Below are positions 58,261-60,243 of a stretch of 64,000 bases of DNA, piece by piece (positions within the stretch are counted from its first letter, which is position 1; each line of letters begins with the position of its first letter). The notes under the pieces are model-generated. The model was given only the letters and a program-made list of their open reading frames with translations. It did no database searches and was not told where the DNA came from. The stretch comes from Chloroflexota bacterium (lineage in GTDB: Bacteria; Chloroflexota; UBA11872; VXNJ01): positions 1,472,001-1,536,000 of the forward strand of contig OZ253449.1 in NCBI GenBank assembly GCA_965261345.1, written 5' to 3'. A program made the position numbers and the translations under genes.

Positions 58261-58266
58261 TATAAT
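58261..58266 (+). promoter_or_regulatory. Putative -10 element of the SAM-I leader
   Basis: Perfect TATAAT about 30 nt upstream of the aptamer. Confidence 0.5.
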
Positions 58267-58294
58267 TTGCCTCAATTGAATACGGTGGTTCCGG

Positions 58295-58408
58295 CTCTTA
58301 TCCAGAGTGGTGGAGGGACACGGCCCTTTGAAGCCCGGCAACCGGTGCGGCAGTTTTTGCCGCGCGTTAGGTGCCAACTCCGGCGAGCCTGCAATCGCAA
58401 GATAAGAG
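58295..58408 (+). ncRNA. SAM-I (S-box) riboswitch
   Basis: P1 CTCTTATC/GATAAGAG, CAGAG, GGAGGGA..GGCCC..TGAAGCCCGGCAACC, GGTGCCAACTCC. Confidence 0.96.
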
Positions 58409-58422
58409 GACACCACACCCTG

Positions 58423-58524
58423 ATGCGTAGCACTCGCAGTCCCAGCCCGCCCGGCTGGGCCAATAAACCCGCGGCATTCTTCCGCCTCGATGGTCATTCC
58501 CACGGCGGACAGTCCTTCATGTAG
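58423..58524 (+). CDS. Putative 33-aa leader peptide (uORF) of the SAM-I leader
   Basis: MRSTRSPSPPGWANKPAAFFRLDGHSHGGQSFM*. Its SD-like AAGAGGA overlaps the P1 3' strand and its last codons are complementary to the downstream SD. Confidence 0.45.
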   Translation: MRSTRSPSPPGWANKPAAFFRLDGHSHGGQSFM

Positions 58525-58634
58525 AGCTACCCTTCCGGCCTTGGTCGGCGCCGCTCGCGGTGCCTGCCCGCAGGCCAGGCAATCTCTGCAACTCTGAATT
58601 TGATAAATATTCGTGAAGGACTATCAGTTACAAA

Positions 58635-59897
58635 ATGGCCGATAAGGTACTTGGCCTAAGGTGCAAAAACTGCGCCAACGTCTACTCGGCTGGCGCCCAG
58701 CATGTCTGCAATCTCTGTTTCGGCCCGCTTGAGGTCATCTACGACTACGAGCTGATCGCATCGCGGATTTCGCGCCGCAAGATCGCCGAGGGACCGCTCT
58801 CGCTCTGGCGCTATGCCGATCTGCTGCCGCTTGATTCTGGCTGGGATCGCAACGTCCGAGTGGGATTTACTCCGCTCCAGCGTGCCGGCAAACTGGCCGA
58901 CCGGCTGGGCCTCAAAGAGCTCTGGCTCAAGAACGACAGCGTAAACCCGACCTTCTCCTTCAAGGACCGGCCGGTGGCCGTGGCCCTGGCCAAGGCGCGC
59001 CAGCTCGGCTATGAGGTCTTTGCCTGCGCCTCGACTGGAAACCTGGCCTCGGCGGTGGCCGGCGCCGGCGCCCGCACCGCGCTGAAGATCTACGTCTTTA
59101 TGCCTTCGGACGTGGAGGCCGGCAAGGTCTTGAACGCGGCGGTCTATGGGGCCAATCTGGTCGCCGTAAACGGGACCTACGATCAGCTCAACCGGCTCTG
59201 TTCGGAGATCGCCGACGAAGAAGACTGGGCCTTCTGCAACATCAACATGCGCCCCTACTACGCCGAGGGATCAAAGACCCTGGCCTTTGAAGTCGTCGAA
59301 CAACTTGGCTGGCGGGCGCCCGATCACGTGGTGGCGCCGATCGCCTCCGGGGCGCTCTACACCGAGATCGCCAAGGGATTTGCCGAGCTGGTGGAGGTCG
59401 GCCTGATCTCCTCACAGAGCGTTGCCATCTCCGGTGCCCAGGCCGATGGTTGTTCACCGGTGGCCGATGCTTTTGCGGCCGGACTAGACGAGTTCGAACC
59501 GGTGCGCGACCCGCTAACAGTCGCCAAGAGCCTGGCGATCGGCAACCCGGCCGACGGAAATTATTCGCTGCAGGTCGCCCGCTCCAGCGGTGGCGTGATC
59601 ACCAAGGTCACCGATGAGGAGATCATCGCGGCGATTTCGATCCTGGCCGCCGACGAGGGGATATTTACCGAACCGGCCGGTGGGGTCACGATCGCCACCC
59701 TGATCAAGCTGGCCCAAAAGGGTCAGTTCGGCAGGAACGAATCGGTGGTCGCCTACGTTACCGGCAACGGCTTAAAGACCCAGGAAGCGCTCGCCGGGCG
59801 CGGGGTGGCGAACATGACGATCGCCCCGACCCTGGGGGCGTTTGAGGAAGCCATCGCGCGCGAAACCAGCAACGAACGGGCCCCGGTGCTCATATGA
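58635..59897 (+). CDS. thrC: Threonine synthase-like PLP enzyme (likely O-phosphohomoserine sulfhydrylase, MetM-like)
   Basis: N-terminal CxxC-CxxC, NPTFSFKDR, CASTGN, EGSKT, TGNGLKT; follows SAM-I and precedes a MoaD-family gene. Confidence 0.85.
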   Translation: MADKVLGLRCKNCANVYSAGAQHVCNLCFGPLEVIYDYELIASRISRRKIAEGPLSLWRYADLLPLDSGWDRNVRVGFTPLQRAGKLADRLGLKELWLKNDSVNPTFSFKDRPVAVALAKARQLGYEVFACASTGNLASAVAGAGARTALKIYVFMPSDVEAGKVLNAAVYGANLVAVNGTYDQLNRLCSEIADEEDWAFCNINMRPYYAEGSKTLAFEVVEQLGWRAPDHVVAPIASGALYTEIAKGFAELVEVGLISSQSVAISGAQADGCSPVADAFAAGLDEFEPVRDPLTVAKSLAIGNPADGNYSLQVARSSGGVITKVTDEEIIAAISILAADEGIFTEPAGGVTIATLIKLAQKGQFGRNESVVAYVTGNGLKTQEALAGRGVANMTIAPTLGAFEEAIARETSNERAPVLI

Positions 59898-59970: not shown

Positions 59971-60243
59971 ATGGCAACCGTACGAATACCGGCGCCGATG
60001 CGTGAATTGGTGGGAAACCAGAAGCGGATCGAATCCGATTGCCCCAGCGTGAGGGCGATGATCGAACAGATCGATGCCGATCACCCGGGCTTTAAGCGCC
60101 GCCTAATTGGCGATGATGACGAGCTTTCCAAGTTCGTACAGATCTACGTCGGGGATGAAGACATCCGCTTCTTGTCCGGACTTGAGACCGAGCTGGTCGA
60201 GGGAACCCGGGTCTCGATCGTTCCGGCCGCCGCCGGCGGCTAG
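59971..60243 (+). CDS. MoaD/ThiS/CysO-family sulfur carrier protein
   Basis: MATVRIP...YVGDEDIRFLSGLET...IVPAAAGG; C-terminal Gly-Gly. Confidence 0.92.
   Translation: MATVRIPAPMRELVGNQKRIESDCPSVRAMIEQIDADHPGFKRRLIGDDDELSKFVQIYVGDEDIRFLSGLETELVEGTRVSIVPAAAGG

Follow-up and report, generated by a model that had tools for sequence, protein, structure and literature searches.

A SAM-I riboswitch whose P1 helix overlaps the putative ribosome-binding site of a conserved, methionine-ending leader reading frame ahead of a MetM/MetO-like operon in a Chloroflexota bacterium

Results

Genes and RNA elements at the locus

This study concerns a 64,000-nucleotide (nt) stretch of DNA from an uncultured Chloroflexota bacterium (assembly GCA_965261345.1, contig OZ253449.1, positions 1,472,001 to 1,536,000; hereafter, the window), in which a riboswitch of the SAM-I class, specific for S-adenosylmethionine (SAM), lies upstream of a gene for a ThrC-like enzyme. 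Between the two lies a short upstream open reading frame (uORF) that ends in a Met codon and whose Shine-Dalgarno (SD)-like sequence overlaps the P1 helix of the riboswitch. Coordinates refer to the window throughout, and the features are collected in Table 1. RF00162 matched the aptamer over its entire length (model positions 1-108 of 108) with 71.4 bits against a gathering score of 44.4 (E 1.5e-15), and a search of the 2.39-Mb genome with the same model returned this aptamer as the single SAM-I match. Moreover, in an alignment of 21 sequences P1 occurred in three variants, CTCTTATC/GATAAGAG, CTCTCATC/GATGAGAG, and CTCGTATC/GATGCGAG, with matched changes on both strands. The element at 58295-58408 is a genuine SAM-I riboswitch aptamer, and binding of SAM is predicted.

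The ThrC-like gene starts at 58635, 226 nt downstream of the aptamer, which is the distance given in the initial annotation of this DNA. The score of its product against NF006050 was below the cut-off of that model, and a second thrC paralogue, 34% identical to the ThrC-like gene, is present elsewhere in the genome. A homocysteine route employing MetM and MetO has been reported in Streptomyces (Hasebe et al. 2024, as quoted in PMC13759103 and PMC12172450), and metM of S. albulus has an upstream SAM riboswitch according to PMC12172450. The present locus likewise combines a ThrC-like enzyme of the pyridoxal phosphate (PLP) type with an adjacent sulfur carrier ending in Gly-Gly and an upstream SAM-I element, the separate thrC paralogue lying elsewhere in the genome. 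Because the ThrC-like enzyme, the Gly-Gly carrier, and the SAM riboswitch together match the Streptomyces route, we read the operon as MetM/MetO-like; the enzyme is probably a MetM-type homocysteine synthase, for which activity on O-phosphohomoserine is predicted.

Upstream of the aptamer, the TATAAT sequence at 58261-58266 was kept with its surroundings in all seven species of the window's genus, and TATACT-like boxes were found at the same distance in other genera. A consensus promoter scan at this TATAAT returned no full promoter. It is a probable -10 box that would place the 5' end of the leader near 58273, and we offer it as a lead only.

Table 1. Features of the leader and operon (window coordinates). 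MFE, minimum free energy.
Feature	Position	Strand	Basis
-10-like TATAAT box, probable leader promoter	58261..58266	+	read in sequence
SAM-I (S-box) aptamer	58295..58408	+	RF00162 full-model match, P1 covariation
P1 3' strand (GATAAGAG)	58401..58408	+	Rfam alignment; shares first five bases of AAGAGGA
SD-like AAGAGGA of uORF, partly within P1	58404..58410	+	identical in 7/7 genus species
Leader ORF, 33 codons + TAG	58423..58524	+	33-codon ORF in 7/7 genus species
Conserved core Gly-Gly-x-x-x-Met (GGC GGA CAG TCC TTC ATG)	58504..58521	+	GGN GGN N9 ATG motif
Anti-SD strand AGTCCTTCATG, including terminal Met codon 58519-58521	58511..58521	+	complementarity, MFE fold, shuffles
TGTAGAG, second-helix 5' strand, spans stop codon	58520..58526	+	every MFE fold pairs it with 58585-58591
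G+C-rich hairpin domain within long-range helices	58531..58579	+	MFE folds
CTCTGCA, second-helix 3' strand	58585..58591	+	TCTGC(A/G)A in 5/7 species
Main-gene SD region CGTGAAGGACT, 3' strand of anti-SD helix	58612..58622	+	complementarity, MFE fold
ThrC-like PLP enzyme, N-terminal Cys-rich ribbon	58635..59897	+	PF00291 2.9e-70; TIGR00260 269.9 bits
ThiS/MoaD-family sulfur carrier (MetO-like)	59971..60243 (probable frame)	+	PF02597 6.6e-13; C-terminus ...AAAGG (Gly-Gly)

The leader ORF and its putative ribosome-binding site in the window's genus

To the aptamer's 3' side, the uORF can be read from ATG 58423, with an in-frame CTG at 58420, and it ends in CAG TCC TTC ATG TAG; the stop codon (58522-58524) is located 113 nt before the ATG of the ThrC-like gene, hereafter the main gene. 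In the genome of the window, no ATG, GTG, or TTG other than ATG 58423 lies in frame ahead of the conserved ending. Direct reading bore out the initial annotation in its coordinates for the SD-like AAGAGGA, the CTG and ATG, the 33-codon frame, and both helices discussed below, and in its statement that the terminal Met is the sole internal Met of the peptide.

Relatives were then compared through 73 leaders, grouped as g1 (the window's genus, seven species), g2-g5, f2-f6, and X1-X3. In a metagenome scan, the relatives of the genus were at best 71% identical and otherwise 52-60% identical, none of them close. The orthologous gene was present in 40/41 genomes of the order sample and in 92/98 genomes of the class. 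Rfam placed SAM-I ahead of it in 27 of 29 relatives' loci; one of the two missed loci was recovered with a model built from 21 aptamers, and the same model found SAM-I in many further loci. A spacer of ~180-230 nt between aptamer and start was the rule among relatives, and therefore the long leader is itself conserved.

In all seven species of the genus, the uORF ATG was found 12-14 nt past the aptamer and the uORF ended in (H/Y/S)-G-G-(Q/P)-(S/G)-x-M-TAG. The N-terminal two thirds were nearly unalignable between the window, a group of five species, and the seventh species (L006); the length was constant at 33 codons. The ATG in the window is 2 nt further from P1 than in its congeners, and the stop codon is shifted equally, leaving the length of the ORF unchanged. 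Contigs of a close strain differed within the uORF at 58432, 58441, and 58447 (codons 4, 7, and 9), all at first positions (Thr->Ser, Pro->Ser, and Pro->Ser), and downstream of it at 58535 and 58565, which are unpaired positions of the MFE hairpin domain. No change was seen in the last 24 uORF codons, the anti-SD, or the SD.

The AAGAGGA sequence at 58404-58410 overlaps the P1 3' strand (58401-58408), as in SD-occluding riboswitches, and the start that it serves is that of the uORF. The uORF ATG follows the end of AGGA by 12 nt in the window and by 10 nt in its six congeners; ahead of the main gene, AGGA ends 14 nt before the ATG (58635). A candidate 'P0' helix, in which the two flanks of P1 would join and further hide the uORF ribosome-binding site (RBS), was not supported in the genus, where shuffled sequences paired as well in 376/500 and 223/500 cases; it found some support in g5, g2, and f4 (12-26/500 shuffles).

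Loss of the terminator in the genus

A terminator scan found no intrinsic terminator on the + strand between 58409 and 58634, in agreement with the initial annotation, and a hairpin-plus-T-run scan after the aptamer was negative in all leaders of the genus (0/7). Also, no terminator arm competing with the P1 3' strand, the hallmark of S-box transcription termination, was found in this leader or in the genus. By the same hairpin-plus-T-run scan, a terminator was present in every leader of g3 (5/5), g4 (1/1), g2 (2/2), X1 (2/2), f4/X2 (6/6), and X3 (8/8) and at four other loci (4/4), as well as in 2/4 leaders of g5 and 1/14 of f2. These results suggest that the genus has lost a terminator that most of the sampled relatives keep, and that the uORF start has moved against P1.

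In three Actinomycetota-like contigs (L159, L037, and L181), the ThrC-like gene itself starts, with TTG or GTG, 6 nt past the aptamer, and therefore the P1 3' strand GATGAGGAGG is read as directly its SD. These three leaders are a plain translational version of the same SAM-I switch, with the P1 3' strand as the predicted SD.

A weak 4-bp hairpin (GGTA...TACC) followed by TTTTTT was observed inside the uORF of L003, L005, and L013, about 23-41 nt past the aptamer, where the T-run is read as Phe-Phe. This hairpin lies near the position of the relatives' terminator T-run and may be a decayed terminator.

Long-range pairing between the uORF end and the main-gene SD

The end of the uORF (58511-58521) can form 11 bp, one of them G-U, with the SD region of the main gene (58612-58622). 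When the leader was shuffled with dinucleotides preserved, an 11-bp helix with the RBS region arose in 1/1000 shuffles. The best leader:RBS duplex (-21.1 kcal/mol, versus a shuffle mean of -13.8) was reached by 7/1000 dinucleotide shuffles, and the duplex of the uORF-end window (-22.2) by 0/1000. The unconstrained MFE fold contains the 11-bp helix, with probabilities of being unpaired of 0.00-0.24 across 58612-58622. The helix named in the initial annotation is thus real and non-random in this genome, and the TGTAGAG/CTCTGCA pairing (58520-58526 with 58585-58591) that it described alongside was recovered in every MFE fold. ATGTAGAGC is invariant in the genus.

When a ribosome-sized block was placed around the uORF end in a constrained fold, the anti-SD:SD helix was gone. 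Folding with and without P1, which had been suggested as a check, gave another result: the same anti-SD:SD helix was predicted with or without a free P1 3' strand (-96.3 vs -96.8 kcal/mol), so that no switch made of RNA alone is predicted. One candidate for such a switch, in which GAGGAC of the P1 3' flank acts as an anti-anti-SD by pairing with GTCCTT over 6 bp, failed to displace the 11-bp helix in folding and was rejected as the main mechanism.

In five congeners, the uORF end GTCC(C)TGA pairs with TCAGGAC in a bulged 7-bp helix whose box lies 22 nt from the start, pairings that were read by eye and from single-sequence folds, MAFFT placing the 3' boxes of the window and the congeners in different columns. 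Covariation in the anti-SD helix amounted to one compensatory change (C:G to G:C) and no more. In g3 and g5, the main SD was predicted to pair instead with a stretch just past the terminator. A search of 58400-58660 against Rfam at E values up to 10 gave no match.

A Gly-Gly...Met core in six lineages

The core of the uORF was searched among the 73 leaders as the nucleotide pattern GGN GGN N9 ATG. It was found in 28/73 leaders from six lineages, compared with a chance expectation of 0.015-0.02 per 200 nt: g1 (7/7), g5 (4/4), g4 (1/1), g3 (5/5), X1 (L130 and L033, 2/2), and f6 (9/9). The 28 are kin rather than independent samples, and an honest count is about six lineages. It was not found in g2 (2 leaders), f2, f3 (1), f4/X2 (6), f5 (10), X3, or four other leaders; families f5 and f3 have SAM-I plus a terminator but lack the motif. 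The Met codon is fixed in 28/28 motif-bearing leaders because the pattern imposes it, the enrichment being far above chance. When a stop codon directly after the ATG was included, 13 leaders (g1, g5, and X1) matched, as against a chance rate of 0.0002 per 200 nt calculated for the window genome.

The variation within the motif was of a coding type. Among 26 distinct windows around the motif, the third base of the second Gly codon was A in 10, T in 5, C in 7, and G in 4, and the codon three before Met was NCN (middle base C; Ser, Ala, Thr, or Pro) in 24. In family f6, the codons for Gly-Gly are written GGT GGG, GGC GGA, GGG GGA, and in other ways. A 10-codon ORF common to L130 and L033 follows a strong SD (AGGAGG, 5 nt, TTG); the three differences between the two copies are all synonymous third-position changes, and the flanks around the ORF are unalignable. 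Leaders of g3 and g4 have, with an SD, a TTG that lies in frame six codons ahead of Gly-Gly. In four of five g3 leaders (L012, L015, L016, and L017), the ORF opening at this TTG, behind an SD of its own, extends until it overlaps the main start by ATGA; in the fifth (L014) it stops at a TGA inside the main SD, 15 nt upstream of the start, and in g4 the stop lies 30 nt upstream. The longest form of the Gly-Gly...Met leader peptide was found in f6 (L119-L127 and L153), with leaders of 460-560 nt in which SAM-I and a terminator are followed by a uORF of 41-65 codons. Its N-terminus is variable and its module ...TD(V/A)GGLPxMP(R/G)(C/R)G... is conserved; here the frame continues past the ATG into conserved sense codons (Pro-Arg/Gly-Cys/Arg-Gly) within the longer ORF.

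The uORF is thus a conserved short ORF with a start and an SD-like sequence, and it carries at a fixed place a Met codon that matches the pathway of the operon. Because its frame and ending are conserved and its variation is of the coding type, it very probably encodes a leader peptide that is translated and in which the Met codon matters for function.

A different Met-rich stretch was observed in f2 (L018-L030, L128, and L129) and X3 (L056-L096), where a conserved ATG GCG ATG about 95-120 nt past the aptamer heads a frame of 19-35 codons beginning Met-Ala-Met-Pro/Ala in f2 and Met-Met-Ala-Met-Pro in X3. The nucleotides are also complementary to those immediately ahead of the main SD, and they may represent either another kind of Met-codon leader ORF or an RNA helix.

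Other features of the relatives' leaders

Several further observations were made on the relatives. In family f5 (L196-L206), about 25-45 additional residues precede the Cys-rich ribbon at the N-terminus of the ThrC-like protein, and the gene starts about 110-150 nt past SAM-I plus terminator, a separate uORF not being evident there. Many f2 genomes (L019-L030 loci) have a divergently oriented 16S rRNA gene within about 400-800 nt of the riboswitch. At L208 (genome G042, family f2), an ATGGCGATGCCC element and a hairpin precede the ThrC-like gene, and our own model found no SAM-I in the 450 nt upstream; the ATGGCGATGCCC element may be able to stand alone. A long palindrome, CCCTCACCCC...CCCTCTCCC...GGGAGAGGG, recurs in the long spacers of L119, L122, L125, L153, and L166, which belong to unrelated lineages; it could represent either a repeat or a structured insertion.

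Discussion

A two-sensor model for the leader

We propose that two sensors are stacked in this metM/metO-like leader: the SAM-I riboswitch would gate the uORF, and the end of the uORF would open the RBS of the operon and add a methionine input. Judged from sequence, we give this arrangement about an even chance of being correct. Control of uORF initiation by SAM was accepted because there is no terminator, the main SD is 200 nt away, and only the RBS of the uORF touches P1; use of the P1 3' strand as an SD is supported by L159, L037, and L181, in which the same design directly serves the ThrC-like gene. At high SAM, P1 would be closed and would hide the uORF SD, blocking initiation, as the overlap of the two sequences suggests. 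At low SAM, the SD in the P1 3' strand would be freed and the uORF translated. A ribosome at the Met or stop codon would then have to unwind the 11-bp helix that sequesters the operon RBS, as in the constrained fold, and a ribosome waiting at the Met codon when Met-tRNA is scarce would hold the helix open. The operon would accordingly be expressed only at low SAM, and most strongly when methionine is also short. In lineages with a terminator, where the uORF has its own SD downstream, SAM-dependent termination and the uORF would act in series. A conserved leader peptide that keeps its Met codon in a constant position upstream of genes for methionine synthesis has the look of a starvation sensor, and it is from this that we infer the Met-tRNA input.

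The relay from the uORF to the operon, by helix melting or by Rho polarity (below), is the weak link of this reading. Melting of the helix by a terminating or stalled ribosome is plausible in this genome, as modelled by folding. The relay to the ThrC-like gene is less settled because the anti-SD helix is weak in five congeners and absent in one. Of the relay as set out in the initial annotation, a conserved uORF that ends in Met and has a putative RBS overlapping P1 has stood, and the anti-SD helix as a general mechanism has not: the alignment of relatives' leaders that it proposed showed the ATG-stop ending kept in 7/7 species of the genus and the helix not conserved.

A number of observations weigh against the model or parts of it. 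Shuffled sequences did as well as the uORF-end pairing in 122-452/1000 cases in the five congeners and in 39-566/1000 in g5 and X1 (pairing with the last 45 nt before the start), and L006 has no anti-SD helix (675/1000). The anti-SD helix is exceptional in the window genome only and is not a rule of the family. The SD spacings (12 and 14 nt), whose length the initial annotation had itself flagged, are long for this genome, where distances from the SD 4-mer to the start peak at 6-8 nt and tail off to about 13: in that tail, spacings of 12-14 nt have counts of 39, 32, and 26, versus about 80 at the peak and about 20 for background. Long open frames also occur in other frames of the leader, and 33 codons are unsurprising at 62% G+C. 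Neither strain variants nor close species showed a third-position bias in the N-terminal part of the uORF, because of which only the C-terminal core looks selected. Within that core, the two Gly columns and the ATG column are invariant by construction of the search pattern. Conservation extends beyond the stop codon, with NGC in 25/26 windows and the ATGTAGAGC of the genus, and thus has a component at the RNA level; moreover, f2 retains TTCGGCGG, but there it is not in frame with the conserved ATG GCG ATG of that family. Finally, a single regulatory codon is unusual, being atypical of leader peptides that sense starvation.

Alternative explanations

The main rival relay keeps the uORF translated and gated by P1, and transmits its signal by Rho-dependent polarity of the tnaC kind in place of anti-SD melting. 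A leader free of ribosomes would expose C-rich RNA to Rho, which would terminate transcription before or inside the gene, and a ribosome at the Met or stop codon would block Rho. We consider this rather unlikely, yet it is the main rival because Rho is encoded in the genome (TIGR00767, 534.7 bits, above cut-off) and C is abundant and G scarce in the leaders: the spacer behind the stop codon has a C content of 0.43-0.45 and a G content of 0.20-0.26 in the five close congeners, and the uORF region of the window itself has 0.39 and 0.24. It would fit the conservation of the uORF, but not of the anti-SD helix, across the genus, and the layout of a conserved C-terminal core, a stop, and a spacer of about 100 nt resembles that of tnaC. 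Rho-linked control by a riboswitch and uORF is also discussed for M. tuberculosis in PMC11260477. Against it, the strong structure predicted past the stop disfavors loading of Rho, no rut site or termination point could be identified from the sequence, and there would be no explanation for the window's 11-bp helix.

The remaining alternatives dispense with the leader peptide. If nothing were translated, GGCGG, AUG, and the AGC after the stop would be RNA structure, SAM would act through alternative folding or an atypical terminator, and the frame would be a by-product of high G+C. The conservation past the stop codon, the out-of-frame TTCGGCGG of f2, and the abundance of long open frames in the window leader all fit such a reading, as does a G+C-rich hairpin, present inside the uORF of every genus species, which may represent a remnant or an atypical form of terminator; in addition, 6 bp can form between GAGGAC of the P1 3' flank and GTCCTT of the anti-SD. 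We nevertheless hold it to be improbable. Gly third bases take all four letters, and spellings such as GGT GGG and GGG GGA destroy GGCGG; the NCN periodicity, the exclusively synonymous differences between L130 and L033, and the strong SDs that X1, g3, and g4 have ahead of in-frame starts point to translation; the ORF kept its length despite the 2-nt shift of its start; and folding gave the same anti-SD:SD helix with or without the P1 3' strand, the spacer matching no Rfam family. Less likely still is that the conserved ATG starts a minimal ATG-TAG or ATG-TGA ORF, with GGCGG as a weak SD 10 nt upstream and a ribosome parked on the anti-SD. The GGCGG-N10-ATG spacing does resemble the long SD spacings of these leaders, and in g3 and g4 the conserved ATG also opens a frame that reaches the main start; however, f6 members without the nucleotides GGCGG keep Gly-Gly, GGAGG occurs at this place in 0/26 windows, X1, g3, and g4 own better SDs with an upstream in-frame TTG, and in f6 the ATG continues into conserved sense codons inside a longer ORF. 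We find it similarly hard to credit that the SD in P1 is a standby or loading site serving the main gene at a distance, the uORF being irrelevant. There is a precedent in the SAM-II metA leader of Sinorhizobium meliloti, where, according to PMC9373788, an SD within the riboswitch is needed for translation 74 nt downstream, but the distance here is 226 nt and runs through stable hairpins. A start codon 10-12 nt past the SD in 7/7 species likewise speaks against a standby site, which would also leave the peptide core unexplained in lineages whose uORF has its own SD.

Comparison with known systems

Classical S-box leaders share with the leader of the window the aptamer family and, in relatives, the gene context; in contrast to them, the window's genus has no terminator and its P1 overlaps an RBS. 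The translational SAM-I leaders L159, L037, and L181 differ in that their P1 3' strand (GAT[A/G]AGAGG-type) is the predicted SD of the ThrC-like gene, and in the window it is that of the uORF. In trp and his attenuation, and in the translational attenuation of ermC and cat, a ribosome stalled on a leader ORF remodels the RNA, in the latter two freeing a sequestered RBS. Like these leaders, the leader studied here has a short ORF whose regulatory codon corresponds to the end product of the pathway, and the location of Met on the anti-SD fits the ermC type. Unlike in them, there is one codon only, the last before the stop, no terminator follows the uORF, and the ORF would be gated by a riboswitch. 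E. coli TnaC senses free tryptophan and thereby induces a catabolic operon. A short ORF, a conserved C-terminal core before the stop, a long spacer, and the presence of Rho are shared with tnaC; this likeness is one of layout, and the biosynthetic operon here would, unlike tna, need induction on shortage.

The leader of Salmonella mgtA combines a Mg2+ riboswitch with a uORF containing proline codons (mgtL), translation of which opens the structure over the RBS. Here, too, an RNA that senses a metabolite or ion would be joined to a codon-sensing uORF in a single leader; the sensors and the phylum differ, and the mgtA riboswitch is not proposed to occlude the SD of its uORF. The intergenic uORF of mgtB is a related case (PMC8092293). 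A parallel in arrangement is that of M. tuberculosis, in which, as reported by Kipkorir et al. 2024 (PMC11260477), a B12 riboswitch masks the RBS of the translated uORF uPPE2 and ppe2 depends on that uORF as an 'indispensable relay'. In both cases a riboswitch lies over the RBS of a short uORF upstream of the gene. The present element is SAM-I and not B12, and its uORF stops 113 nt before the start in place of the termination-reinitiation at AUGA described in that paper; such an AUGA overlap does occur in the sister genus g3 (4/5 leaders), there with a terminator after the aptamer. In addition, uPPE2 is poorly conserved according to that account, whereas the uORF of the window has a conserved peptide core and a proposed link through a long-range helix or Rho. 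A literature search of a limited collection for SAM riboswitches with a uORF or leader peptide found no SAM-I case and nothing on Chloroflexota.

Implications

Tentatively, and with rather less confidence than for the two-sensor arrangement itself, we suggest that Gly-Gly-x-[S/A/T/P]-x-Met marks an undescribed family of leader peptides sensing methionine or Met-tRNA behind the SAM-I riboswitches of Chloroflexota metM genes. The terminator would have been lost and P1 rewired to gate the peptide, and the two glycines may modulate how ribosomes stall or are released at the Met or stop codon.

Most descriptions of riboswitches present them as complete in themselves, an aptamer being joined to a terminator or to a mask over an SD, and few outputs mediated by uORFs are described. 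Riboswitches and regulatory uORFs in combination are of known kinds; what would be new here is the SAM-I case and the conserved Gly-Gly...Met leader-peptide family. The long 'spacers' behind riboswitches may hide small coding sensors, which is a warning for annotation. If the model is correct, this would be the first SAM-I riboswitch with translation of a uORF as its only direct output, and a natural swap of expression platform, from terminator to uORF RBS, would have occurred within one bacterial family. The leader would provide a ribosome-based methionine sensor, a role filled elsewhere by T-boxes or repressors, and would give the recently described MetM/MetO route a testable two-input logic of SAM and Met.

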